This document shows, piece by piece, positions 27,516 through 64,000 of a DNA stretch of 64,000 nt. The DNA comes from Dictyostelium discoideum. Lineage: Eukaryota. Every line of letters begins with the position of its first letter. Within the stretch, counting starts at the first letter, position 1. The position numbers were made by a program, and so were the translations under genes. The stretch lies in contig CM000154.2 in assembly GCA_000004695.1 (NCBI GenBank), forward strand, positions 4,480,001 through 4,544,000, written 5' to 3'. The notes below the pieces were generated by a model, which saw only the letters and a program-made list of their open reading frames with translations, had not been told where the DNA came from and did no database searches.

Positions 27516-37670
<10,155 letters not shown>

Positions 37671-38149
37671 AATAAAAATTTAATAACATTTACTACCATT
37701 AATTTTTGTCTCTCGTGAATAATTTTTTTTTAACAACATTGTCAATGTTATTAGTGTTTATATGTAAAAAAAAATTATTCACCAATTTCAAAATCATTGG
37801 AGTTTTAAAAAGAACCTTTTTCATTAACATTTTAAAATAATAATAACCAAAAATACTATAAACAACAACCTCTATAATATTTTTTATTAATTTTTCTACT
37901 CAAATAACCATTATTTATTTAAATAATTATTATTAAAATATTTTAATTATAATTTAATCTAATTTATATTAACTTTTTAATAAAAAAAATAAAAAAAAAA
38001 TAAAAAAAAATTTTTATAATAAAAAATTAATATTAATTTAAAAATAAAGTAGTATTTTAACAAAAAGGATAATTGTTTTTTTTTAATTTAAAAAATTAAT
38101 AAAAAAAAGCGAAAATGCGTTTTTCACCTTGGGTTTAAAAACGCATGCT

Positions 38150-41100
38150 GGAATGGCTCATGTGGTTTTTTTATTTTAATTTCAATAGACCCACACGTCT
38201 CAAAATCATTCACACAATTAGGTCTTTTAAGTTCAACAGGTAAATGTCATACATTTTCATCGGATGCTGATGGTTATGTTCGTTCAGAAGGTGTTGGTAT
38301 CGTTGTATTAAAGAGATTAAAAGATGCAATCAAAGATTCAAATAATATCTATTGTGTAATCAAAGGATCAAGTTCAAATATCGATGGTAACTTTGATAAA
38401 TTAAACTTTTATTCACCATCAAAATAATCAATATCAGATTCATTGATTTGACCATTGGTTGATTTGATTGCTAATTTGATGTGTGAAACTCATGGTACTG
38501 GTACTCCAACTGGTGATCCAATAGAATTAGAAGGTATATCAAGAGTTTTCAATAATACTAAAATACCATCAACAACAACAACAACAACAAATAATAATAA
38601 ACAAGTTTTAGTTGGATCAATTAAATCAAATATTGGACATCTTGAAGGTAAGTTTATTAATTAAAAATTAAGTCTATAAATAACCAAAGTCAATCATTAC
38701 TAACATTAAATATTGTTTATAATTAATAACAGCATGTTCAGGAGTTGCATCATTAATTAAATGTTGTTTAATGTTTAAAAATAAACTATTTCTTCAAAAT
38801 ATTAATTTCAAAGAACCAAATCCATTAATTAATTTTAAAGAATGGGGATTAAAAGTTGTCACTGAACCAATTAAATTTAATGAAAATAAATCAACTGTCA
38901 TGTTACTTAATAACTTTGGTATAACTGGTAAAAATATATAAATTTTATCTTTTTTTTTAAGTTTATAAAATAAATAATTAACATTATATCATTAATTTAG
39001 GTTCAAATGTTTGTTTAATATTATCTGAATTTAAAAATAATAATCATAATGACTATAGTAGTGGAGTCGAAATTAATGAAAGAAAGAAATATTTAATACC
39101 ACTCTCAAGTAATTCATCAACATCATTAAATAATTATAATTAAACATTCAAATTCAAATTCAACCTCATCATCGACAATAACAACAACAAGTTTCAAAGA
39201 ATACATAATCAAATTAAATTCAAATCAACATCATTAATTCAAAAATCAGTTATAATCGCAAGTGATTGGAATGAATTTCAAGATGAAAATAATCAAATCA
39301 AATTAAATAATAGTGATAATTTAATTTCAAATATTACAGTTGAAAAAAAGAAATCACCAATCACAGTAATTGTATTATGTGGTTAAGGTTCACAATATAA
39401 TAAAATGGCATTATCATTATATGATAACGAACCAGTATTTAGAGAATCTGTCAATAGATTCGATAAAGAGTTATTCAAATATTATGGTTATTCAGTTTTA
39501 GATAAATTAAGATCAATTGATGAAGATTTAATATCAATTCATCATCCAATTTTAGCACAACCTGCAAATGTTATCATTCAAGTATCACTTTATGAATTAT
39601 ATAAACATTGGGGTGTTTCAGCAGATATTATCATTGGTCATTCTCTTGGTGAAATATCATCGTCATATTGTTCAGGTATGATTGATTTTCAAACATTATG
39701 CTACTTGACTTACCATAGATCAGTAGCTCAAAATAGAACCATAGGTACAGGTAGAATGTTATCAGTTAATATTAGTTCAGATGAATTCATTAATAAATAT
39801 CAATCTACAACTAGATATAAATCATTAGAAATTGCATGTTACAATTCACCAACATCAATCGTTATCTCAGGTAAAGAAGACTTATTAAATGAAATTACCA
39901 AAGATTTCAAATCAAACGATATCTTTTGTTCAATGTTAGGATTATTATCATCATTTCATACATCAAGTCAACAAATGATTAAAGATGAAGTATGTTCATT
40001 AAATATTTCATCGAAACAACCATCGATAGCAGTATTTTCAACAGTTACAACCAGTTTATTCGATCATCAAACTTCACCGTTCAATGCAGGTTATGCATTT
40101 AATAATATTCGCCAACCAGTTCGTTTCACACAAACAATAACAAATCTTTACAAACATATCGAATCAAATGATATGGGTAATGAAATTACATTCATTGAAG
40201 TTTCACCACATCCAACATTACAATATTACTTAAATCAAATGAAATCAACTCAATCAAGTTACTTTAATAATGGTAAAAACATTACAATCTATTCACCATT
40301 AAATAAAAAGAAGAATGATTATAATGAATTCTTAAAGACAATCTCTTTATTATTTGTCAATAATAATTTTGATATTAATTTCAAATCACAATTAATTAAT
40401 AACAGTATTAACCATACAAACCAATCAAATAATTTACCACTTTACCAATGGGATGATAAAGAATACTTTAAACTAAACTCATCACTTGAAAAGATTAAAA
40501 ATGAAGGTCCATCCATTCACAGTCTTGGTAATAATACAGATTCACCATATCCATCATATCAAACATTTATCGATATCAAGAAATTACCATTCCAATGGTT
40601 AAAAGGTCATCAAGTTAGTGATAAATTCTATTATCCAGGAATGGGATATGTTCACAATTTATTATCAATTTATCCATATCAAGATATTACAATTAGCTCA
40701 TTAGAATTTAAATCACCATTATTATTAACAGAAGGTATTAATCAATGTTTACAAACTACAATTGCACCACTATCAAAGAATGAATTCAATATTAAAAGTC
40801 ATTATAAAGATCAAAAAACAAATCAATGGATATTATCATCTCTTGGTAATTTTAGTTTAACCAAACATAACAGTATCATCATCAACAAATTAATTAATAT
40901 TCAATCATTAAAAGATAAATGCAATTTTACAATCATTCCAAAACAAGATTTTTATGAAACTATTAGAATTAAAGCAAATTTAATATACAAAGGTTTATTT
41001 CAAGGTGTAAAACAATGTCATATCGGTAATAATTGTTCATTAGCAATAGTATCACTAAATGAAATTTATAATCAAAAAGAATATAATCATTTAATTAACA

Positions 41101-42350: not shown

Positions 42351-42862
42351 AAAATTTGTGACGAAAAAAAAAATAATAATTCAAATATTAATTTGGTTTC
42401 ACATAGTTGTAAACATAATTAATTTTGTTTTTTAAATAACCACTTTGGGCAATTTATTGTTTATTTCCTTTTATGGATTAAAACTGATATATCAAAAAAA
42501 ATGTTAGCTAAGTAAATATTAAATAAATATTTATTTAATAACAATAATAATAATAATAATAATGTTTAATTAATAATATTACATAATATAATTGAAAAAT
42601 CTTTTTATATTTAATTAATAAATGATTACATTTAATCTCTTTTTATAACTTTTTTTTTTTTTTTTCTATTTGATCTCTTTTTTTATTATAAATTAAATAT
42701 ATGAATGTTTAGTAGTTTGAAATCATAAAACAATTGGGAATTTTCCTATTGTGGTTGAGCATTACGATGTGCTAAAATCCTAAATTATCTATCGATACAA
42801 GATTCACTTAGTTTTTCAAGAATATGAAATATAAAATAATAACAAATGTAATTTTTTTTTAT

Positions 42863-44288
42863 TTAATGATTGTTAATGATATCATTAAAAATCATTGATT
42901 CATTAATTTCCCAATCCTGATGATTATATGAACCAATTGAAATTAATAATTCTTTTGTGCTATTTGACATTTTGAATAAACTATTGATTTTAAAGCTTGT
43001 TAATAATAAATTTTGATTTTTGTGAATGTGGAATGTTGAATATCTTTTTGATGATTTTCCATTTGATTTTGAAACTAATTCAATCCATTCATAGAAATCG
43101 ATTTCTTTACATTTAAAACTATTTTCTAATACCCTATAAAATGATTTCATTTCAATTGAATCACCATTAAAATTATAAATTGAAATTGGTTTTGATTTAT
43201 TTTGATTCCAACTGTTTTCATTGAATATTAAATCGATTGTGGTTTTAGCTATAGTTGTAACTGGAGTTGTGAAAACTGATTTATGAATATTTGGATAATA
43301 ACCAATCTCTTTCGAAGATTTTATTAAAAGTGATATAAAATCATTTGAATGACCTATACCTGTTATTGGATTTGAGAATATATCTATAATTAAAATAGCA
43401 ATGAAAATAGTTATTGGAATATTATATATAAATATATAAGGTTAATACTAAATTAATTGATTGGAATCAATATATATTAATATGCTACATACCAGGTGGT
43501 CTAATAATGATTGATGGTATACCTCTTGATTCTGCTGCGTTTGTTAATAATTTCTCTGAAATAACTTTAGATTGAACATATCCAATTGGCGTAGAATTAT
43601 AACTTGGAACTAAATTTGTTTCTTCGAAATCCTCTTCATCTTTAAAAGGATGATTAATGAATACTGCAAGTGATGAAAAATGAACTATTAATTTTTGTGA
43701 GCTATTATTTGAAACTGATAATTTTATAACTTGATTAACGTTGTTGACATTTACAGTTTTACTTTCTTCATAGTTTGATTTTAAATCTAAATCTGCTGCT
43801 GAATTTATAATAATATCACATTCATTTGATAGTTTTAAATAATCTTGTTCAGTTAAACCAAAATTATCTTTTGAAATATCACCAATCGTTGGAATGATTT
43901 TAATTAATTGATCTTCACTTATTTGGCTATTATTATCACTATTATCACCACTTTCAATATTACTATTTAATCTTTGATTTGGTGATCCTTTGTTCATATT
44001 AATTAATTGGTGTTTCTTTAAATTATTAATAATTACATCGATTGGATTTGTTAATTTTGAATTATTTCTTATTAAACAATAAATTTTTGAGATATTGTTC
44101 ATTTTAATTAATTCTGTTAATAAATATGCACCCAAGAATCCTGTTGAACCTGTTAAGAATATTGATTTACTATTATTATTATTATTTAATATATTTTTAA
44201 TTGAATATGGTCTTGAAATGATTGATTCATTTAATTTAGTTTCATTTTTAATAAATTCATCAAGTGATTGTTGTTCTTTTTTAACTAA

Positions 44289-44356
<68 letters not shown>

Positions 44357-47300
44357 GAGCCGATTTAATAATTTCAATTGATTGATTGATTTTATTATTT
44401 TGTAATTGTTGAATTGTGATAATATTATGACCTAATTGATTATCGATAAAATTCTTTAATTGTACAATCACTAAACTATCCATACCATATTGCGTGAGTT
44501 GAAGGTCTTCATTGATTTTAGATTCATCAATCGATAATAATTCACTTATTTTATTTAAAATTGTTGAACGAATAATTTCATTATTATCACCATTACCACC
44601 AGTGAAAGATTTCATTTGATTTGATTTTTTAACAATATTAATTTCAAAATCAAATTTTGAATGGTATTGATTTGTTAAAGTTGATGGTAAAACTTCAAAA
44701 TTGAAATCTGATAAACAGTAATTTGGATATTGATGTTGATTTTGAATGAATAAATCTAATGAACTAATTACGAGTTGAGGTGAGAATAAATTAAAAATTG
44801 AACTCTTAAACATTGTTTCAATTGCATTATTACGTGATACGAAACCAGTTGATGATATCGCACCTAAATTAATGGCTAAAGATGGTAATCCAATTGAATG
44901 TCTATACTTTGATAATGAATCGATAACACTACATGCACTAACATAACAACATTGTTGATCTGATCCAAATATTGAGACTACTGATGATGCCATTATAAAT
45001 TGTTTGATATTCCATGAACGATTAATTGATTGATTGTGAAGATTAATTGCTCCAATTGTTTTAGCACCATGTGTATTATTTAAACGATTCATATCGACTT
45101 GTTGAACATCACCAATATCATTCATAAATGCAAAATGAATGATTGAATCAATGTTTGTAATATTTTCATTTAATTCTAATTGATTTAATACTTGATTAAC
45201 TTTATTTGAATCTTCAATATCTATTTGATTGAAATGGAATTTAATATTATTATCTTTTTTAAATTTGCTTTGATTGATTAATAATTCTAATTCCCATTTT
45301 AATTTTGATTTTGAAAGTATTATTATATTTTCAATTGAATGGTTTGAATATTTAACCAAATATTTTAATATTTCTAAAACAATACCAGTTTGACCAGTGA
45401 GTAAAATATTTTTACCAATATTTAATTTTGAAATATCATATAAATGTTTCATTATGATATGATTGTTATTACTTTGATAATTATTATAAACTCTATTAAA
45501 TTCATCTTGATTATGATTAACAATGATTTTACCAATATGTTTTCTTTGATTTATATATTCAATTGCATCTTTAAATTGATTATTTGAATATTCAATGATT
45601 GGTACACTTAACTCTAATTTATTTGAATTAATCATTTTGATAATTTTCTTTAAATAGCTTTTGATTAATTTACTAGTGAAATCGACAACTTCTACATTAC
45701 TATATGTCATATTAAATTTGAAATGATTATTTGTCATATAATCATTTGGTGTGAGATGAGTGATACTTAAATCAACGATACGTCCTGATAAATTTAAACA
45801 TTGGAAATTTGAATCCATATACTCTGATGATAATGTATTTAATATTAAATCTACACCTTGTTGTTCAACTTCACCTAATTCCATTAATTTATTCTTTATA
45901 TCTTTGACATAGTTTTTATTACGAGATGAATAGATAGCAGTAATTAATGATCCATATTTCTTTATTAAGTATTCTTCTTTATCTTTTGAACTAACTGTTA
46001 AAAATATATAACCTTGATGTTGTTTACTTTTTAATAAATCTAAAGATGATATACCAATACCACCTGCTGCTGAATGAATTAAAATTGATTCATTTGATTT
46101 TAAATTACCAATACTGTAGATACTATGTAATGATGTAATATAAATAGATGGTATTGATGCTGAAACTGAATGGCTATAATTTAATGGTTTATAATAAATA
46201 GAAGTGAAATCTACAATAACATGTGAACTACTTGCTTTTGAACCAATACCACAAACTTGATCACCAACTTTAAATTTCTTTACATTATTACCTAATCTTG
46301 TAATAATACCACTAAAGTCATTACCAATGTTTGGATTATCAATACCAATACCATTTTCAATTTCATACTCTTTACCATACTTAATATCTAAATCTGAACC
46401 AATCATACCGATATACATTAAATAATCTTTATAATTTATACCAGTTGCCTTAACTTCTATCTCTACTTCATTTGAATTTAATTTAGCTTTTTTACTATAT
46501 AATTGATATTCTAAATTTGAATTTAATTGAATATATAAATTATCTTTATTGGTTTCAAATGATTTAGATTGGAATATACTTTTAATATTATTTGATCTTC
46601 TACAATATCTTTCATAGTATACTTTATTATTATTAATTGTAAATTCTTTTTGAATATTATTATTTGGATTGATTAAATAATTGATTAATGATAATTGTTG
46701 ATTATTTTCAATTGAAATATTATCATAATTTAAAGTTAATAAATCTAATTGTGGGAATTCAACGAAATAACGAGCAGCACCAATAATTGATGATGATAAA
46801 TAATTATCAGTGGTTGAATTTAATGATAATAATAAATGTTTGAAATTATTTGATAATTCTAATTTTAATATTAATTGATTAATTTGAATGTATTCAAATG
46901 TGATCTCTTTGAAATTAAAAGTATTCATTGTTGATTCAATTGATTTTAAAAATATTATTAATGTTTTATTACAATCATCTTTATTTTGATAATTTGTAAT
47001 CCATGATTGAAATTCATTGTAATTACTAATATTAACGATTTTGTGTTTTAATTCTTGATTTAATCTTATTAAATTTTGTATACTACTGCTGCAGATATCA
47101 TTTTTATAACTATTAATATTTCTAATATTATTACTGTTACTACTAAATAAAATAATGTTATTGAAAGAATTTAATTGATCTAATGATATTGATTGTTCTG
47201 AAATGATTTCATTAATTGTTGGTTTTCTAGTTTGAATTAAAAATACTAAATTATCATTACCAGACATTATTGTATCTCTATAATTACATTGATTTAAAAG

Positions 47301-48028
47301 GTTAATCCATTTCTCTTGTTTCATACAACATCTATCAGGTCTTAATTCGATATCACTATCAGAGGATGGCCACCATTGTGAAAAACAACCGAATATCGAA
47401 TCAAAATAAAATGATTTGTATGGTGGTTCTATAAATAAAAGTTGACCATTTGGTGTTAATATATTATGAATTTCATTTAATGTTGGTTTGAGTTTCTTAA
47501 CGACATGCATAACATTTGACATTACAACGAAATCATAATAGGATGCTTTAAGATCTTGATCTAATAATGGTTTCTCTAAGTCTAATACACGATAGATAAT
47601 ATTTAAATTGTTATGATTTGTAAATGATGAGAAATTTTCTTTAATTTCAGCGAAAAATGATGCAGATACATCACTCCATGTAAATTCTATATTAATGATT
47701 GATGTTGTACTATTATCGTTTAATAATTTACAAATCTTTTCTAAAATTAATAAACTAAGACTACCAGTACCGCCACCTGCTTCTAATATACGAAATACAA
47801 TTGGTTCATTTAAAATTGGTTTTAGAGTTTCAACTATAATTTCACTTAATAAATTATTTGATGGTTTAATTACATTTGAATTCTTATAAAATTCATCTAA
47901 ATAACCACTTTCAAATAATGATTGTGGTGTATCTGTAATGGAATCATCATCTTTTAATGGGAATAACTGTTTTGCCATTACTTTAGTTGCTCTAATATAT
48001 AAATTTTCATAATTATTATAACCATTAC

Positions 48029-48080
<52 letters not shown>

Positions 48081-51000
48081 TATATTAGGATTGTTTTGGA
48101 ATTTTTTTAAAACTTCAAAAATGAATTTGAAAAGATTTTCATTTGCTAGACTATTATCATAATATAATTGTTTAAATTGATCATATTCTAATGTTGTTAA
48201 TGATTCTAAATTGATACTTGGACATCTTTTATTAATGTGTTTATAAAATAATGATGGTAATAATCCCTTTGAAATGAATCGATTTCCTTCTTCTTTGACA
48301 CTAAATTCATCTACTCTATATAAATGTTTGAATTGTTCAGGTTTATTGATCATAGAATCTTTTGATTGAAGATATGGTGTATAAATTTCATTTGATGGTG
48401 GTTTACAAATTATAGTACTATCAGGATTGGAGCCAACAATAGTGCAAACTACATTTCCAATATCAACTAATAATGTACCATTTGGAAGTATGATTTTAAT
48501 TGATCCTGAATATGTTTGAGAATTGGTTCTTGCTCTAATTTCAGAGTAAACATATAATTCTTTAATTGTATCATTATTATTGCTATTGTTGTTATTATTA
48601 AATGATGGATAATTTGAAGAGTAAAATTTGAAAGCTTCAATTCTATCAAGTACGATTGGTTGTGTAACTGCAACCAATACTCCATGTAAACAAGTATCTA
48701 AAATTGCTGTATTAAAAAATGTATCCATAATACTATTGTTCAATAAATGATTATATTCTTTTTGATTATAAATTTCATTTAATGATACTATTGTCAATGA
48801 ACAATTACTACCGATATGACATTGTTTTACACCTTGAAATAAACCTTTGTATGTTAAATTTGTTTTAATTCTAATAGTTTCATATAAATCTTGTTTTGAT
48901 ATGCTTGTAAAATTACATTTATCTTTTAATGATTGAATATTAATTGGTTCATTATTTTCAATATTATGTTTGGTTAAACTAAAATTACCAAGAGATGATA
49001 ATATCCATTGATTTGTTTTTTGATCTTTATAATGACTTTTAATATTGAATTCATTCTTTGATAGTGGTGCAATTGTAGTTTGTAAACATTGATTATTACC
49101 TTCTGTTAATACCAATGGTGATTTAAATTCTAATGAGCCAATTGTAATATCTTGATTTGGATAAATTGATAATAAATTGAGAACATATCCCATTCCTGGA
49201 TAATAGAATTTATCACTAACTTGATGACCTTTTAACCATTGGAATGGTAATTTCTTGATATCGATAAATGTTTGATATGATGGATATGGTGAATCTGTAT
49301 TATTACCAAGACTATGAATGGATGGACCTTCATTTTTAATCTTTTCATGAAACGAATTAATTTTAAAGTATTCTTTATCATCCCATTGGTAAAGTGGTAA
49401 ATTATTCAATTGATTTGTATTGTTATTATTGATTAATTGTGATTTGAAATTAATATCAAAATTATTATTGACATATAATAAAGAGATTGTCTTTAAGAAT
49501 TCATTATAATCATTCTTCTTTTTATTTAATGGTGAATAGATTGTAATGTTTTTACCATTATTAAAGTAACTTGATTGAGTTGATTTCATTTGATTTAAGT
49601 AATATTGTAATGTTGGATGTGGTGAAACTTCAATGAATGTAATTTCATTACCCATATCATTTGATTCGATATGTTTGTAAAGATTTGTAATTGTTTGTGT
49701 GAAACGAACTGGTTGGCGAATATTATTAAATACATAATCTGCATTGAATGGTGAGCTTTGATGATTGAATAAATTGGTTGTAACTGTTGAAAATACTGCT
49801 ATCGATGGTTGTTTCGATGAAATATTTAATGAACATACTTCATCTTTAATCATTTGTTGACTTGATGTATGAAATGATGATAATAATCCTAACATTGTAC
49901 AAAAGATATCATTTGATTTGAATTCATTGGTAATTTCATTTAATAAGTCTTCATTACCTGAGATAACGATCGATGTTGGTGAATTGTAACATGCAATTTC
50001 TAATGATTCATATTTAGTTGTAGATTGATATTTATTAATGAATTCATCTGAACTAATATTAACTGATAACATTCTACCTGTACCTATGGTTCTATTTTGA
50101 GCTACTGATCTATGGTAAGTCAAGTAGCATAATGTTTGAAAATCAATTATACCTGAACAATATGACGATGATATTTCACCAAGAGAATGACCAATGATAA
50201 TATCTGCTGAAACACCCCAATGTTTATATAATTCATAAAGTGATACTTGAATGATAACATTTGCAGGTTGTGCTAAAATTGGTTGATGAATTGATATTAA
50301 ATCTTTATCATCAATTGATCTTAATTTATCTAAAACTGAATAACCATAATATTTGAATAACTCTTTATCGAATCTATTGACAGATTCTCTAAATATTGGT
50401 TCATTATCATATAATGACGATGCCATTTTATTATATTGTGAACCTTGACCACATAATACCATTACTGTGATTGGCGATTTCTTTTTTTCAACTGTAATAT
50501 TTGAAATTAAATTATCACTATTTTCTAATTTGATTTGATTATTTTCATCTTGAAATTCATTCCAATCACTTGCGATTATAACTGATTTTTGAATTAATGA
50601 TGTTGATTTGAATTTAATTTGATTATGTACAAATTCTTTAAAACTTGTTGTGGTTGATGATGAATTTGAATGTTTAATTATTGATGATTTATAATTATTT
50701 AATGATGTTGATGAATTACTTGAGAGTGGTATTAAATATTTCTTTTTTTCATTAAATTTATTATCAATTTTGATTTTGTGATAACTATTACTTTTATTAT
50801 AACTAAATTGATTACCATAAAATTCAGATAATATTAAACAAACATTTGAACCTAAATAAAAAACATTATTAAAATATTAATTATTTATTTTATAATAATA
50901 AAATATAATGATATATATTTACCTGTAACACCGAAATTATTAAGTAACATGACAGTTGATTTATTTTCATTAAATTTAATTGGTTCAGTGACAACTTTTA

Positions 51001-52622
51001 ATCCCCATTCTTTAAAATTAATTAATGGATTTGGTTCTTTGAAATTAATATTTTGAAGAAATAGTTTATTTTTAAACATTAAACAACATTTAATTAATGA
51101 TGCAACTCCTGAACATGCTATTATTATTTATTATTATTATTATTATAGATAATATTTAATGTTAGTAGTTAATAATTGACTATAGTTATTTATATTTAAT
51201 TAAATTTAATTAACTTACCTTCAGTATGTCCAATATTTGATTTAATTGATCCAACTAAAACTTGTTTGTTATTATTTATTAATGTAGTTGTTGACGCTTT
51301 ATTATTGAAAACTCTTGATATACCTTCTAATTCTATTGGATCACCAGTTGGAGTACCAGTACCATGAGTTTCACAATAATCAATATCAGATTCATTGATT
51401 TGACCATTGGTTGATTTGATTGCTAATTTGATATTTTCATACTGAGATGATTTTGATGGTGAATAAAAGTTTAATTTATCAAAGTTACCATCGATATTTG
51501 AATTTGATCCTTTGATTACACAATAGATGTTATTTGAATCTTTGATTGCATCTTTTAATTTCTTTAATACAACGATACCAACACCTTCTGAACGAACATA
51601 ACCATCAGCATCCGATGAAAATGTATGACATCTACCTGTTGGACTTAGCATATCTAATTTTGTGAATGATTTTGAAATGTGTGGGTCTTTGAATAAATAA
51701 ATAAAATATCAAATTAATATCTTTTTTTTTTTTTTTTTTTTTTTTTTATCACATACCTAATATAAAATTAACACCACCAACAATTGAAACATTTGATTTA
51801 TTTGATTTAATTGAATTATATCCACAATTAATTGCATTTGACGAACTTGAACAAGCTGTATCAATTGTTAAATTTTCACCTCTATTTTTTAAAATTAATA
51901 TAATAGTTAAAATTATAGTTGTGGTAAAAGAAAAGATAAATCAAAAACATACCTAAAATCAAAGCAATAACCAATTCTATTTGCAATAGAATGAGTTGTG
52001 GAACCAAAAATATTATTTTGAGTTTCCAATGGTGATCTTTGAAGATCATTATAATCAATAGTACTACTACCAATAAATGTACTTGTATTGGTACCACGTA
52101 AACTAATTGGATCAATACCACTATCTTCTAATGCTTCCCATACACCTGTTTGTTGATTTTATTTTAAAAATATAATTAATAAATAAATAAATATAAATAT
52201 CTAAATTTTTTGTGGAAAAGTTCAAAAACACTTAATAAATACATACATTTTAATAATAATCTTTGTTGTGGATCTATTGAACTGACATTATCATTGCTTG
52301 GATTAATTGCAAAGAAGATTGGATCAAATTGTTTCCATTCATCAAGTGGAAGTAAACCAGCAAACTTTGAAACGATTTCACCATTTAAATAATAATTATC
52401 AGACCATCTTTCAGAAGTTGTAACGATTCCATCCAATCCATTCAATAATTCATTAAATAATTGATTTGGTTTTGAAATTGATTCTTTTAAATTACCACTT
52501 GGAAATCTTAAACCAATACCAATCACTGCAACATCACCACTACCATCAACATCATCATAATCATTTCTATCCCTTATTAATTTATTATTATAAGTGCTAT
52601 TATTGTGAATATTTTCTGTCAT
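42863..52622 (-). CDS. Type I iterative polyketide synthase B, near-identical convergent paralog of A; 7 exons on the - strand: 52247..52622 (ATG at 52622), 51953..52145, 51757..51881, 51219..51686, 50923..51117, 43493..50851, 42863..43383; about 3078 aa
   Basis: Same exon/intron structure and phases as A. The long ORF 43485..50462 plus an upstream open frame covers AT through R. Same motifs as A. The first listed M of ORF 52176..52658 is a non-ATG start; the real ATG ([24 protein letters not shown]...) is at 52622. Confidence 0.85.
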
Positions 52623-52743
52623 TTTTTTTCTTTTTTTTCTAAATAAAACAATAAACAAAATTATATAAAAAATTTTAAAGTATTTATAATTTTTTTTTTT
52701 TTTTAATCAAGTTAAATTTTCATTTAATTTTTTTTTTTTTTTT

Positions 52744-53009
52744 ATTAAAATTTAAAAATTTTAATCAGAAAAAATAATAATTGTGTGTGGGGTAACCTAT
52801 TTAAATTTTATTTATTTTGATTCAATTAATTTTTTTTTTTTTTTTTTTAGTGTGTAGACTGACCACATTCACCACTGTTGAAAATGAGATATAAACTGAA
52901 AAAACAATTCAGTCTTTTTAAATTTTACCTGAATAATAAAAACCATTGTTTAAAAACAGGGTGTGGTGGGACGGGTTATTTTTTCTGATTAAAATTTTTA
53001 AATTTTAAT
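52744..53009. repeat. Small element bounded by 34-bp perfect inverted repeats (ATTAAAATTTAAAAATTTTAATCAGAAAAAATAA at 52744..52777; reverse complement at 52976..53009) with a GT/G-rich 198-bp core; MITE-like or hairpin RNA locus about 120 bp upstream of the PKS B start codon
   Basis: Exact 34/34 complementarity checked base by base. Core contains TGTGTGTGGGGTAACC ... GGGTGTGGTGGGACGGG and a second short inverted repeat AGACTG/CAGTCT. Confidence 0.6.
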
Positions 53010-54535: not shown

Positions 54536-56338
54536 TTAATTACGTTTTATGAATAAGGCATCAAAAGGTTTACATTGCATTGCCAAACCAACTTCTCCTT
54601 CAACATCAATTGGAATATCAGTTGGATTGACTATTTTAAAATTCTTTAACATTATCACCAAAAATGTAAAAGTCAAAGATTCTGTAAATCTTCCTCCTGG
54701 ACAACCTCTAGGTCCTGTTTTAAAAAAAATAATAATGATGATTATTATTATTATTATTATTATTATAAATTAGTTGTAAATTAAAAAAAAAAAAAATAGT
54801 GGTAAATTTTAATTCCTTTTTAAAATGGTATCAAAACATACCTGCACCAAAATGAAAAAGTCCTTTTTGATATAAAGGTTGATTTTTAAATCTTTCTGGT
54901 TTAAATTCTAAAGCATCTTCACCCCAAAACTCTTTTGATAAATGTGTACCACGAAGATTTTTAATTATCATTGTACCTTTTGCAATTTTATATCCATTTA
55001 CTTCAACATCTTCTGTTGTTTTATTCGGTTCAGTTATTGGTACTGAAGAATTATATCTATATGATTCTATTATTCAAATTAATACAAAATTTATTTTTTG
55101 AAAAAATATATCAACACATATTAATACCAATATATATATATATATGGATAATTACCATTCATTACAGAAATAATATATGGATATTTTGTATGATCAGCAA
55201 ATGATATATTATTTGTATTATTATTTTCATCATTTCTCATGATTTCTTCATATATTTTATCTTGAATTTCAGGTTTATTAATTAATTGACCAATTAAAAG
55301 ACTAAACCCATTGGATGTTGAATCAACTGCTGCAAAAATAATATCAGAAATTGAAAACAAGATTGAATCATAATGAATTGAACCATCTAAATAATTTTTA
55401 TAATAATTCTCAATAATTGGAATATTGTTTAGTTTTGAAGATGTTTCATCAGTAGTTTCATTTTTCAATTCATTTTCTTTTTCATATTTAATTTTAATAG
55501 CATCAAGTTTTATACCTATAAAATCTTTTAAAAAAAAGTAACTAGAAATAATATCATTCTTTGACATTGATTTTATATCTAATGGAAATAAAAATGGTAA
55601 ATAATCAGAGTAAATTAATAATCCAGCAGCTTCAAAAATGCATTTAATCTTTTCTACAATGATTAGAATGGTTTCATCATTCTCTTCAATTCCTAATGTG
55701 AAATTTAATATTAATTTAACAGCAAGAATCCTAATTTGATTTGGTGTATTTTTAACAAGAGTTTCTTTATTATCTTTACAAAGATTACTAAACATTTCTA
55801 AAATAAATTTATTTGATTCTAATCTGCCATTATTTAACTTTCTTGTTGTAATTTCACTTGTAAGAATTCCTCTTAGAACATAATGATAATCACCATTTGA
55901 AGAAATAATGTTATAATCTTTACCAAAAAATCTTGAGAATTTAATATATCTTTCTTTGAAAATTTCTCTATGTTTTTTATTAAAACATTCATCAATAACT
56001 TCAGGCCCTGTTAGAACAACAATTTCAACACTACCCAATCTTAATCTAAAAACTTTGCCATATCTTTCATAGAAATCATTTACACTTTTTGGGAAATCTT
56101 TTGCGTTAATTTGTAATAAATTACCAAAAACTGGAATTGTAGAAGGACCAGGTATTAATTTATTAATTTTTTTAATCCTACCTTCAAATAATAAATCCTA
56201 TTTAAAAAAATAAAAGTATAAGTAAGTGTTTAATTTTTAATAATCAATAATATATATAATATTTTAAAATTTTACTTTTAATATTAATGATAATACTAAT
56301 ATTGTAATTGTTAAAATAATTGTAAATATTGTATTCAT
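54536..56338 (-). CDS. Cytochrome P450 monooxygenase, 4 exons on the - strand: 56276..56338 (ATG 56338), 55156..56197, 54842..55066, 54536..54714; about 502 aa
   Basis: N-terminal membrane anchor MNTIFTIILTITILVLSLILK, proline hinge PGPSTIPVFGNL, I-helix AAVDSTS, ExxR (ESYR), PERF, and heme loop split by the intron FHFGAG|PRGCPGGRF. GT-AG junctions and phases are consistent (63+1042+225+179 = 1509 nt). Confidence 0.8.
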
Positions 56339-57478
56339 TGTAATATTATAAAATATTTTAATTGAGAATCTTTTATATTAAAGTTTTTATATTAAAAAAA
56401 AAACTATTTAAATTATAAAATAAAAAAAACCAATAATGTTTTTGTTAAAAACAAATTGATATATTTAAATTTTGGGGAAGTGGGTTAAAATAATTAATTA
56501 TAAAAAAAAAAAAAACCACCAAATTTTTTTTTTTTTTTTCTTTATTAATAATTAAAAAACTTTTTTTATTTCTAAAAACGAACTTGAAAACAGTTTAGAA
56601 AACAGTTTTTAATTTATTTTTTGAAACTGTTTAATTTTATTTTATTTTAATTTTAAAAAAAAAACCAAAATAAAAAAATGACCATTGTACCTTTTGTAAT
56701 ATACTTCAATAAACTGTTTTTTTATTATTTAATTTTAAAAACAAAAATAAAAACAAAAATAAAAATAAAAATAATGAATTAAAAAAAAAAAAAAAAAAAG
56801 TTATAAGATATCTAATTAAGGGTGTAAAAATTTCAGCAATATTTTTTATTTTTATTAATTTTTTTCTGTAATAAATTCGTAAACATATAATAAAAAAGAG
56901 ATATCAAATAGAAACAAAAAAAATAAAAAAGTTTTAACATTTCAAAAAAAGAGAAGTTTAAAATTTAAGGGGGTAAAAAAAACATTTTTTTTTTTTTTTT
57001 TGTAAATTGACAAACACAAAAGCAAACTATACATTAAGTTAAATCTATTAAATAGTTTTTTATATAGAGTCTCGGGGAAATCACCAGATTTCAAAAAAAA
57101 AAATAAAAAAAAATAAAAAAAAACATAATTTTGGGTCAAATAAAAAACAAAAATTTTTTTTTTTATAGTGCGAATTAAAATTAATTATTTGTGTTGAAAG
57201 TAATATCCAAACAATCTAACCTTTTTTTTATTTTTATTTTTTTAATAACTATAAACGTCATCAAATTTTTTATTTAATTTTTTTTTTTATTTCTATAATA
57301 ATATCAAATTTATTTATTTTATTTTATTCTATTTTATTCTATTTTATTCTATTTTATTGTATTTTATTTTATTTTATTTTATTTTATTTTATTTATTTGT
57401 AAAAGAGAAAAGACACAAAATATAGATAATAATAATAAGGGATAGAAATGATGATGATGATGTTGATAGAAATGATGA

Positions 57479-59648: not shown

Positions 59649-62600
59649 ATGAATAATTTAGAAATTATAAATTTAATAGATAAAGGTGTTGCAATTGTTG
59701 GGGTGGGGTTTAGAATTCCTTCTGGTAATAATGAAAATTCAATTTGTTCACCAGATGATTTATTTAATAATTTAAAGAATGGTTTTGATGGTGTTAGTAG
59801 TACATCAGAAAGATGGAGTGACAATTTTCATAAATTAGGTGAAATTAGTAGTCCAAATGCAGGTTTATTACCATTTAATGAATGCAAATCATTCGATCCA
59901 TTATTTTTTGGTATTAATCCATCCGATGCTCATCAGATTGATCCTCAACAAAGATTATTATTAAAATGTACATGGGAAGCATTAGAAGATGCATCTATCG
60001 ATCCAATTTCAATTCGTGGTACAAATACTTCAGTTTTCATTGGTTCTTCAAATATTGATTATCAACATATAAATAAACACCAAGACTCAGTTTTAAAAAA
60101 TGTAATAGCACAATCTGCCTATGCTGTTTCAAATAGAATTTCATACTGTTTCGATTTTAATGGTCCATCATTATCAATCGATACTGCATGTTCATCATCA
60201 TTAAATGCAGTTTCTCAAGGTTATCATTCAATATTAAATGGTACTTCCAATATGTCAATTGTTGGTGGTGTAAATTTAATATTAGGTAAGAATTACATTT
60301 AAATATATTATATATAAAATACACTCATTAATTAATTTTTTATTTAAATATTTTACTAGATGTTGGAATGATAAAAGCATATTCGTATTTAAGCATGTTA
60401 AGTAAAACACATGGTAAATGTAAAGCATTTGATGAAAGTGGCGATGGTTTTACACGTGGTGAATGTGCTACTATTGTAGTTTTAAAAAATTTACAAGATG
60501 CAGTTAAAGATGGTAATAGAATTTATTGTGTAATTAATGGCTCAAGTTCAAACGTTGATGGCGGCGGTCATATGGATAAAGTTAACCTTTATTCACCATC
60601 AAAGCAATCACAATTTAATAATATTAATTCAGCATTTAAATCAACCAATGGTAAACTTTCAATTAATGATATTCAATATATCGAAGCACATGGTACTGGT
60701 ACTAAAACAGGCGATCCAATTGAAACTGAAGCAATTTCAATGGCTTTTAAAAATAGAGATAAATCAACACCAATTCTAATTGGTTCAATTAAAAGTAATA
60801 TTGGTCATTGTGAAGCTGGTTCAGGTGTTGCATCATTAATCAAATGTTGTTTAATGTTTAAATATCAATGCTTTTTACCAAATATTCATTTCAAAAATCC
60901 AAATCCATTAATTAAATTCAATGAATGGAATTTAAAAGTTGTAACATCACCAATTCCATTCAACAAAAGAATTAATGAAAAACCAGTTTCAATGATGATT
61001 AATAACTTTGGTGTAACAGGTTCAAATTGTTGTTTACTTATTTCAGAATTTAAAAAACAAGATTATGAATCATATGAAAACAACAACAACAACAAAAGTA
61101 ATCATAAAAATATATTAATACCATTCTCAGCAAATTCATCAAATTCATTAAATCAATACCAATCAAAATTTAAAAATATAATTAATAATCAATTCAATTT
61201 TATTGATTTTACCGCAAATCAAATTTATTCAAAATCAAATTATCTTTATCAAAGATCAGTTGTAATTGCAAGTAATTCAAATGAACTTTTTGAAAAAATT
61301 TTAAATAAAAAACAAATTCAAACTAAAAATTCAATCATTTCGAATATGTCATTCAAAGGAAAGAACCCAATTACAATTTTTGTTTTTTCAGGTCAAGGAT
61401 CACAATATCCTAAAATGGCTTTAGAATTATATAATAATGATGAAATTTTTAAGAAGTCAATTGATTTAATCGATTCAAAATTATCAAAGTACTATGGTTA
61501 TTCAGTATGGGGGAAGTTAACAACGATCAAAGATGATGACTTGACCTCAATACATGATCCAATTTTCGCACAACCAGCACTGTGTATGCTTTCAGTATCA
61601 CTATTTGAAATATATTGCCATTGGGGAGTAAATCCATCATTTATTCTTGGTCATAGTCTTGGTGAAATTTCAGCAGCATATTGTTCTGGAATGATCGATT
61701 TAGATACATTCTGTTATACAGTTTATTACAGATCAATCGCCCAATCTAAAACAAATGGTTGTGGTAGAATGTTATCAATTAATATCAGTGATGAAGAATT
61801 TAAATCAATGTATTCTCAAAAGTATCCACAAATTGAAATTGCGTGTTATAATTCACCTCAATCAATTGTTGTGGCAGGTAATGAATCAATATTAAATGAA
61901 ATTTCGAAAGAATTAAAAGAAAAAGAAATTTTCACTGCAATGTTAGGTTCATTATCATCATTCCATACAAGTAGTCAGCAATGTACAAAAGATAGTATAT
62001 TACAACTAAACATTGAAAGTAATCAACCAAAAGTACCAATATTTTCAACAGTTACAACAAATTTATTTAATGAATCAAATCGATTTAATTCACAATATGT
62101 TTATGATAATATTATCAAACCAGTTAAATTCACACAAACAATTTCAAATATTTATAAACATATCGAATCAAATCAATTAAATAATGATATTGTATTCATT
62201 GAAATTGCACCACATCCAACAATATCATTTTATATTAAGCAAATGGTACCATCAAGTTTAAATGAATCAGTTTCAGTTTATTCAGCACTTCACAAGAAAA
62301 AGAATGATGTCGAAGAGTTTCAACAAACCATTTCAAATTTATATTGTCAAAATGGATATAGTATTAATTTTAAATGTCAATTGGAAAATAAAAAATCAAA
62401 TCAATCAATAAATTTACCACTTTACCAATGGGATGATGAATTATACTTCGCTCAAACTCAAACACTTGAACAATATACAAAAGAAGGACCACCAATCGAT
62501 CATCTTGGTCTATCAAACTCTTATTATTCACCATTTAAAAATTCATATAGAACATTTATTGATATAAATAATAAACCATTCCAATATCTTAAAGGTCATA

Positions 62601-64000
62601 TGGTTAAAGGTAAATACTACTTCCCAGGTTGTGGTTATATCGATATTATTATTCAACTTTATAAAAATCAAGATATTTTTATTAGTTTTATTGAATTTAA
62701 AACACCATTAATTTTAATTGAAGGTATCAATCAATATTTACAAACAAACATTCAACAAACTGGTAAAAGTGAATATCGTGCACAATTTCATTTCAAAGAT
62801 CAAAAATCAAATGAATGGATTCAATCATCAAATGCAAATTTCCAATTATTAGATCATGGTAATGATATACCATCAAATTATAATATTGAAGAAATTATTA
62901 AAAACAAATGTAATTTGAGCAAATTAACAAAGAATGAACTTTATACACAAATAAAATCAAAAACTGGTTTGAATTATACTGGTGTTTTTCAAGGTGCTAC
63001 TGAATGTTATTTAGGTAATGATTGTTCATTATCAGTTTTATCTTTAAAATCTCAAACAAATTCATTTTTAAATATACCAATTTTAGATACATGTTTACAT
63101 GGAATGTTAGTATTAATAAATGATCAAAGTCAAATTGTATTTGATAAAGCCATTGGATTTAAATATTATTCATCAAACATACCATCGGATCTTAAAGAAT
63201 ATAAAGATAGTATTTATGTTTATTCCAATTTAAAACCAAAAAATGCTGATTCATACCATGGATCTATTATAGTAATGTTATCAGATGGTTCAGTTTTATA
63301 TGAAATTCAAGAAGTTATTTTTAAATCATTAATTCCAATCAAACATTCACTTAAAATTGAGTATCCAAATGATGAATTATACAAAGTTCATTTACAATCA
63401 AAAGATTCTCAAATTCCAACGCCATCATCATTCAAATCAATTATTTATGAAAATGATTTCTTCCATTCTGCACTTAATATTCCAGAAGATTTATTCAAAT
63501 ATATTTCAACATTATTTTATAAAGATATTATAAAAAGATGTCCAGAAATTAATATCAATAAAATTAATTCTCATAGTGTTAATGAAATTATTTCAAGTTT
63601 CAGTAAAATTTCAAAAAATCAAAGATTATTTAGATTTGTATTTGAAACAATAAAAGAGAATGGTATTCTTAATAGTTTGGAAGAAAATGATGATGCTTAT
63701 TTCGAATTTAATGAATTAGTTATTAAATCATCAAAAATTATTTCAAAATTATTATTCCCACTAGAAAGTGATAATGATAATGAAGATTTACCTCAATCAT
63801 TATTTCAAAATGGTTTAATGGATAAAATTTATAAATGCAGTTATTTAAGAAAGAAGTATCAAATGATTTCACATGTCATTATACATTCAATTAAAGAGAT
63901 TATTAATAATAATATTATAATTAGAATTTTAGAATTTGGAGGAGGCACTGCGTCATTATCAGTTGAAGTTATTGGAGAAATCGTTGCATTACTTCAAGAG
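59649..64000 (+). CDS. Divergent type I PKS D, 5' part (runs off window end): exon 1 59649..60285, exon 2 60360..>64000 (KS-AT-DH-CMeT seen)
   Basis: [30 protein letters not shown]. Intron GTAAGAAT...TACTAG (60286..60359), phase 1. AT motif GHSLGE (~61650), [17 protein letters not shown] (~62600), C-Me[11 protein letters not shown] (~63930). The frame is open to the window end. Confidence 0.8.

Follow-up and report, generated by a model that had tools for sequence, protein, structure and literature searches.

A derived 56-bp micro-inversion with an adjoining deletion in a PKS pseudogene of Dictyostelium discoideum

An unprocessed PKS pseudogene of D. discoideum (denoted PSI) carries within its KS domain a 56-bp block that stands in reverse-complement orientation between collinear flanks, next to the loss of 18 bp. 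We regard it as close to certain that this inversion is real and derived. It is a genuine mutational scar of a known kind, without sign of function; what is unusual about it is its length of 56-60 nt and the absence of flanking inverted repeats. As far as a mechanism can be inferred, the scar was probably left by a local strand switch during DNA synthesis, all variants of such a switch taken together.

The inverted block and its junctions

The locus lies in a window of 64,000 nucleotides (the whole stretch of DNA that was analysed) with 23% G+C and short, A+T-rich introns, which exact protein look-ups assign to D. discoideum. At 38425-38480 the forward strand reads TAATCAAT...CTAATTTGAT (full sequence TAATCAATATCAGATTCATTGATTTGACCATTGGTTGATTTGATTGCTAATTTGAT), which is the exact reverse complement, at 56 of 56 positions, of 28950-29005 in the intact PKS gene A; the preliminary description had placed this partner four positions off, at 28946-29001. 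A match to the 56-mer with three or fewer mismatches was found in none of 100 dinucleotide-preserving shuffles. On both sides the block is bordered by sequence collinear with copy A (40 of 40 bases matching on the left, 39 of 40 on the right), and for more than 100 bp on either side the two copies are near-identical in the plus sense. Alignment in both orientations, the check proposed at the outset, accordingly returned a block that is reverse-complemented and not collinear. By Pfam, the block and the 18-bp loss fall within Ketoacyl-synt_C (PF02801), directly 5' of the catalytic-His motif CETHGTGT. The preliminary description was thus right about the micro-inversion, its location in the KS domain of a PKS pseudogene, the deletion of ~18 bp at one edge (TCATCTCAGTGCGAAAAT of gene A) and the 19 residues encoded by the sense block, with which our translation agrees.

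The window contains five copies of the 56-mer, at 38425, at 28950 (as the reverse complement) and at 810, 4312 and 51377. The last three plus-strand copies each lie inside a minus-strand KS paralogue and are collinear with their own flanks, so that only the copy at 38425 is inverted relative to its surroundings. These three inverted-orientation paralogues, each an equally possible template, had been overlooked in the two-copy comparison on which the inversion was originally described.

Table 1. Positions of the inverted block, its junctions and the surrounding PKS features in the window.
Feature	Start	End	Strand	Description
Flipped block in PSI	38425	38480	+	Reverse complement of KS-coding ATCAAATTAGC...GATATTGATTA; maximal extent 38423-38482 (56-60 nt) by junction ambiguity
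Sense block, intact gene A	28950	29005	+	Encodes 19 residues; immediately 5' of catalytic-His motif
Collinear block copy, paralogue C	810	865	-	
Collinear block copy, PKS fragment D	4312	4367	-	
Collinear block copy, gene B	51377	51432	-	
18-bp segment TCATCTCAGTGCGAAAAT	28932	28949	+	Present in gene A, with T or A variant in other copies; absent from PSI
Left junction	38423	38424	+	AA found both in the left flank (..CATCAAAA) and in the reverse complement of ..GATTATT
Junctional G	38481	38481	+	Private to PSI; T in 7/7 other aligned copies
Junction-made ATG	38479	38481	+	..TTTGAT/G; in frame with the downstream KS C-terminal exon
Unprocessed PKS pseudogene (PSI)	38166	42398	+	5'- and 3'-truncated, introns retained, extra nonsense codons
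Junction of ~3.2-kb internal deletion of PSI	41264	41268	+	Joins gene-A coordinates 31835 and 35050
Intact PKS gene A	27516	37670	+	6 introns; reconstructed product 3109 aa, the annotated length
Intact PKS gene B	42863	52706	-	6 introns; reconstructed product 3078 aa, the annotated length; convergent with A and PSI
Inverted repeat, left arm	37001	37691	.	3' end and flank of gene A; partner 42844-43538 (3' flank of gene B), 95-98% identity

Across the copies that retain it, the missing segment reads TCATCTCAGTG[C/T]GAAAAT. The dinucleotide AA is the sole microhomology at the first joint. It makes the left breakpoint ambiguous by 2 nt, and the right one is ambiguous by at most 2 nt; the flipped fragment is therefore 56-60 nt long and the loss amounts to 16-20 nt. 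In addition, a single base at the right-hand joint, G38481, differs from all other aligned copies. Private changes occur in PSI at a rate of ~1.5% per site; a coincidental substitution at exactly the joint base is thus unlikely, and on sequence grounds G38481 most likely belongs to the inversion event. The block is a micro-inversion in that a reverse complement of less than 100 bp occupies the same position between collinear flanks, but it is not a 'pure' inversion, with 18 bp lost and one base changed. Inversion and deletion together amount to a net change of -18 bp, which leaves the KS reading frame unshifted across the event. The flipped block itself contributes two in-frame stops, TAA (38425-38427) and TGA.

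The host of the inversion is typical of an unprocessed PKS pseudogene, combining multi-domain PKS homology (KS-N, KS-C, KAsynt_C_assoc and AT pieces by Pfam) with retained introns and multiple disabling lesions, among them more nonsense codons 3' of the block. Homology begins within the intron preceding the block-bearing exon, so that PSI lacks the exons of the KS active-site Cys, and it ends at gene-A coordinate 36220. Over 3.1 kb plus 1.1 kb, PSI is ~90% identical in DNA to genes A and B. This identity is mosaic: it varies from 80 to 99.5% per 200 bp for each paralogue, and the nearest paralogue shifts along the length of PSI, a pattern that, as judged from these alignments, shows past exchange between PSI and its relatives.

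PSI is positioned between the convergent intact genes A and B. The splice reconstructions of these two genes are each unique at the annotated length; an exact-sequence look-up of the reconstructed products in a protein collection gave no match, and none of the proteins returned by a homology search exceeded about 1,250 aa. PSI occupies the ~5-kb spacer between the inverted-repeat arms at the 3' ends of the pair. In the AX4/AX2 lineage the convergent ~10-kb PKS pair thus forms a giant imperfect palindrome, whereas the genes are arranged as a tandem array in CR116C.

Polarity and reality of the inversion

The polarity of the event was assessed against paralogues, which are not proven orthologues, in the window and at three comparison loci: L003 and L005 from GCA_054859385.1 (a divergent D. 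discoideum strain, probably CR116C) and L004 from D. cf. discoideum. In two strains, the block is in sense in all nine KS units other than PSI, none of which has lost the 18 bp, and both D. cf. discoideum copies likewise have the block in sense with the 18 bp present; one comparison fragment lacks the whole block-bearing exon. A search of ten PKS units in two strains (~65 kb) for local reverse-complement patches of at least 16 nt returned only the PSI block. Since the sense orientation is found in all other KS copies compared, the flipped state is, on this comparative evidence, derived and specific to PSI.

No pre-inversion allele of PSI itself was found in L003, L004 or L005, and the ancestral sequence used below is for this reason reconstructed from paralogues. 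The fragments ACTFIR_002633 and ACTFIR_002635 (L003/L005) and ACTFIY_001084 (L004) were considered as orthologues of PSI and rejected: their internal-deletion junctions differ from that of PSI, they are just 86-95% identical to any copy in the window, and where the block-bearing exon is kept the block is in sense.

The 718-aa ORF of PSI was found in one NCBI assembly, GCA_054883475.1, which belongs to a set assembled de novo from Nanopore and Illumina data (PMC12745789) and is probably AX2-214. Its locus shows 0 differences from the window over 10,157 bp, both junctions included. Elsewhere the two assemblies differ, with 99.3-99.7% identity and indels around the neighbouring aminotransferase gene, and the two 100-N gaps of the window are closed in GCA_054883475.1; this assembly is therefore not the source of the window. 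The possibility of an artefact, through a chimeric read or through wrong joining of the five near-identical paralogues, which stand in both orientations, was weighed against these data. The cluster is indeed repeat-rich, the window holds the two N gaps, and the region left of one of them has no match above 97% in GCA_054883475.1. However, the two junctions are within 56 bp of each other and thus inside one read length, and an independently sequenced long-read de novo assembly has the same sequence over the whole 10,157 bp with identical junctions, which makes an artefact extremely improbable.

AX2 and AX4 both derive from isolate NC4. The same junctions in both assemblies, together with this common origin, imply that the inversion would be older than the split of the laboratory lines and presumably arose in an ancestor of the NC4-derived strains. 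The preliminary description had called for the junctions to be sought in other strains or independent reads; the de novo assembly provides the former, whereas exact-protein look-ups of the junction-spanning ORFs (69 aa with a TTG start, 31 aa on the minus strand and 61 aa with an ATG start), read-run assemblies included, returned no record. A PSI-specific 56-aa ORF located 300 bp downstream was likewise without a record in the exact-protein look-up.

Origin of the inversion

According to the mechanism that we favour, a nascent strand at a replication fork or in break-repair synthesis, in the ancestor of the NC4-derived strains, would have reached ...CCATCAAAA in the KS exon of a PKS fragment duplicated earlier. 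It would then have jumped ~75 nt ahead to the opposite strand, pairing by 2 nt only (AA/TT), copied 56-60 nt in reverse, and returned to the original template just past the point from which it had jumped. This order, 1-3-2-4 in the four-point notation, would invert the fragment and at the same time skip the stretch of 16-20 nt that separates points 1 and 3, making inversion and deletion one event; it would require neither a hairpin nor a pre-existing inverted repeat. At the return joint, G38481 may have been mis-incorporated, added without a template, or produced by a one-base slip of nascent ...TTTGAT onto the upstream C-ATCAAA repeat.

Taking A, B, C, D and one CR116C copy in turn as candidate ancestor, we enumerated all solutions with a single switch and return. 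The enumeration yielded 12 equivalent parses, each with exactly one mismatch and all essentially of order 1-3-2-4; in one example p1=40, p3=57-59, p2=114 and p4=115-117, with a fragment of 56-60 nt. The structure is that of the published class, a left flank F1 followed by the reverse complement of the fragment from point 2 to point 3 and by F3, in the order 1<3<2<4 and with a fragment no shorter than 10 bp, and the one mismatch falls inside the 95% identity of the published four-point filter. None of the five candidate ancestors gave an exact single-switch solution, as G38481 was left over in each case. The event is in this respect less 'precise' and 'clean' than the preliminary description had it, although its proposal of a template switch fits well, since one switch-and-return of the 1-3-2-4 type accounts for both inversion and deletion. 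Base for base, G38481 is reproduced by three routes: an untemplated or mis-incorporated base, a one-base slip, or the two-step route discussed below. A microhomology of 2 nt is trivial in a genome of 77% A+T and as such counts against a strand switch.

The hairpin-mediated repair that had been put forward as the other half of the same proposal did not hold. At the breakpoints of the reconstructed pre-event sequence the only inverted repeat is AA/TT, and the arms of the best nearby inverted repeat (28947-28957 / 28990-29000) do not bracket the breakpoints. The 117-nt ancestral context is predicted to fold at -6.4 kcal/mol, compared with a shuffle mean of -8.6 (z = +1.0), and the block alone folds no differently from its shuffles (z = -0.01). 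A hairpin or quasi-palindrome origin was therefore rejected.

A flip between two double-strand breaks yields the same product as the strand switch, an observation that counts against the latter. Here, breaks ~75 bp apart would free TCATCTCAGTGTGAAAAT plus the block, and NHEJ would religate the fragment in reverse after resection of 18 nt at one end, where one nucleotide would also be altered or inserted. Such a flip gives exactly the observed sequence, the junctions are of the end-joining type (0-2 nt of microhomology, loss at one fragment end, an odd base at that joint), and no inverted repeats are required, consistent with their absence. On the other hand, two simultaneous breaks within 75 bp and the retention of a tiny fragment are a priori rarer than one stalled polymerase, and three outcomes, namely inversion, base loss and extra base, have to be explained separately, the first two of which a template switch gives together. 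No feature of the sequence discriminates between the two routes; we consider the two-break flip a possible but rather unlikely origin.

Another route belongs to the template-switch family itself and involves two steps. The return would take place upstream, at G-TGTGAAA-AT, to give an inverted duplication, rc(block)-GTGTGAAAAT-block, from which the sense copy would subsequently be removed between TGTGAAA repeats; the perfect 56-bp palindrome would be resolved by cleavage and microhomology-mediated joining, or by slippage. Under this scheme every nucleotide of the derived sequence is templated and matched exactly, G38481 included, and the 7-bp direct repeat TGTGAAA does bracket the block in C, D and both CR116C-type copies. 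The predicted fold of the intermediate, at -65.7 kcal/mol, implies that it would be strongly unstable. However, two events are needed, the scheme improves on the one-step switch by one base only (a likelihood gain of roughly 4- to 9-fold), and the repeat is imperfect in A and B. The route also presupposes an upstream GTGTGAAA in the pre-event PSI allele. We accordingly hold it to be doubtful.

The block might instead have been copied from an inverted paralogue, B, C or D, during repair synthesis (MMBIR/FoSTeS-like). All three carry the identical 56-mer on the plus strand in the orientation seen in PSI, and the mosaicism of PSI speaks of past exchange with its relatives. Against this, B lies 13 kb and C and D ~34-38 kb away, a local switch would need less physical reach, and past the block the paralogues read ATTTTCAC... 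and not G. An ectopic template is thus quite improbable; the individual sources are indistinguishable because all copies are identical over the block. Homology pairs copies in the same sense, and a converted patch keeps its sense orientation. As homologous exchange for this reason cannot yield a local inversion, an origin by gene conversion with the inverted paralogue B, or by double crossover with it, was rejected on recombination logic.

For the single local strand switch, the location of PSI between the arms of a large inverted gene pair offers a plausible setting for fork stalling. More speculatively, and with little probability in our view, the flip may have been left by a fork that stalled at the giant imperfect PKS palindrome, some switches proceeding via unstable inverted-duplication intermediates resolved at 7-bp repeats. 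If palindromic gene pairs did trigger long, repeat-independent switches, template switching would have a part, so far unrecognised, in the rapid remodelling that Dictyostelium PKS clusters undergo in individual lineages, and such events could run two to three times longer than those in the primate catalogue.

Relation to known events and consequences for the locus

Micro-inversions of less than 100 bp are an established variant class, and type 1-3-2-4, the pure inversion, is the commonest short template-switch class in primates, making up 45% of high-confidence human-chimp template-switch events (PMC5453318); the event in PSI is consequently not of a kind 'seldom seen', as had been supposed. 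Like type 1-3-2-4, it consists of a left flank, the reverse complement of a nearby fragment and a right flank, in the order 1<3<2<4 and in place, creating no repeat and requiring no pre-existing inverted repeat. It differs by the 16-20 nt gap between points 1 and 3, which leads to the deletion, by one mismatch at the return joint, and in that the reference for PSI is a paralogue, not an orthologue.

The 59 human-chimp micro-inversions classed as 'definite' have lengths of 17-33 nt, and in all of them the breakpoints directly adjoin inverted repeats of 3-75 nt (PMC8755829). The PSI segment resembles them in being exact (56/56), in place and below 100 bp, but it measures 56-60 nt, has AA/TT only at its breakpoints, and is accompanied by an 18-bp loss and one changed base. 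With 2 nt of inverted repeat, where at least 3 nt at both breakpoints define the inverted-repeat-flanked class, it falls outside that class. A length in excess of these well-documented, repeat-flanked micro-inversions of 17-33 nt counts against a strand switch. Quasi-palindrome correction or hairpin-templated mutation, as outlined in PMC5453318, requires an imperfect inverted repeat already present, which is made perfect (Ripley model). The model shares with the PSI event the short-range copying from the complementary strand, but not the breakpoints without an inverted repeat or the pre-event fold that is not in excess.

In dictyostelids the PKS family has undergone lineage-specific expansion (PMC3188802), and PKSs are among the largest orthogroups (PMC12745789); decaying PKS duplicates are therefore expected. 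PSI is similar to other unprocessed Dictyostelium PKS pseudogenes as an intron-retaining partial duplicate in a PKS cluster that shows truncation, deletion and nonsense codons, and differently decayed PKS fragments are seen at comparable positions in other strains (L003, L004 and L005). It differs from them as the only one of the ten PKS units examined with a local inversion. We found no description of such events for Dictyostelium in the literature searched. The PSI block may thus serve as a worked example of a long, inverted-repeat-free micro-inversion with clear polarity, in which one strand switch covers both inversion and deletion, from a non-metazoan, extremely A+T-rich genome with no catalogue of such events.

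The biological effect is slight, as the host fragment is dead several times over and nothing functional was altered: the flip would have placed two stop codons in a KS domain from which the 5' exons, 3.2 kb of internal sequence and the 3' end had already gone or were to go later. It does matter for analyses of the locus. Alignments of the PKS paralogues in this cluster, and gene-conversion analyses of it, would wrongly count the flipped block as many closely spaced substitutions and indels. The ATG created at the junction, moreover, seeds a spurious gene model in a new public annotation: it is the start of the 168-aa 'hypothetical protein' KAM9948296.1 in GCA_054883475.1, whose sequence we reproduced from the locus with a unique splice solution and which is the sole member of its protein cluster.

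Mosaic composition and annotation of the pseudogene

Between positions 38166 and 41266 the unprocessed PKS pseudogene is a mosaic whose nearest paralogue switches every few hundred bases, with identities ranging from 80 to 99.5% per 200 bp. As an example, it resembles the intact gene A upstream of the flipped 56-bp segment (38425-38480) and the PKS fragment D just downstream of it. Such a composition would be expected if members of the PKS cluster had repeatedly converted one another. Over positions 39299-40405 the pseudogene is 95% identical to fragment D, which is closer to it here than is either intact gene, A or B; from this sequence relationship we infer that the pseudogene and fragment D share a common history or have exchanged sequence in the past. 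A more distant PKS paralogue, located at the window's right end, shows 68-77% DNA identity to the pseudogene.

In the annotation of GCA_054883475.1, an independent de novo assembly (probably of AX2-214), the pseudogene is cut into three 'hypothetical proteins', models that are probably annotation artefacts.

Features of the PKS cluster (window positions)
Feature	Position	Strand	Remarks
Truncated PKS fragment D	3047-5519	-	Second such fragment; upstream of PKS paralogue C
Inverted repeat arms	37001-37691 and 42844-43538		95-98% identity; made up of the 3' ends of A and B, two convergent genes, with their flanks
'Hypothetical protein', 168 aa	38479-39143		Start is an ATG made by the inversion junction
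'Hypothetical protein', 718 aa	39405-41561		GCA_054883475.1 annotation
'Hypothetical protein', 229 aa	41657-42346		GCA_054883475.1 annotation
More distant PKS paralogue	60398-63048	+	Past the p450 gene

Arrangement of the cluster in strains and assemblies

Genes A and B form an imperfect palindrome of ~10 kb with a spacer of ~5 kb, inside which the pseudogene lies. In the AX4/AX2 lineage gene B (region 42844-53000) lies on the minus strand, whereas its counterpart gene3 in the divergent strain GCA_054859385.1 (loci L003 and L005) shares the strand of the neighbouring genes. Since the adjoining p450 gene (54822-56429) keeps its orientation between the two, this arrangement implies, within the PKS cluster, either a strain-specific inversion of ~10 kb or a duplication that was built differently.

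Near fragment D, to the left of the N-gap at 6667-6766 (region compared, 3400-6766), the window has no match of >97% to GCA_054883475.1 (locus L002); to the right of this gap the match is 99.3-99.7%. The reference may be misassembled beside fragment D, or may differ structurally. At the place corresponding to a second 100-N gap (11236-11335), GCA_054883475.1 has only ~12 bases.

Decayed PKS fragments in other strains

Independently decayed PKS fragments occur at comparable positions in the divergent strain (L005, 10001-14319) and in D. cf. discoideum (L004, 6923-15313). One of the two has precisely lost the exon bearing the 56-bp segment (28746 to 29277 in gene A coordinates); the other is split into five ORFs. 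These fragments show that PKS copies arise and decay rapidly.
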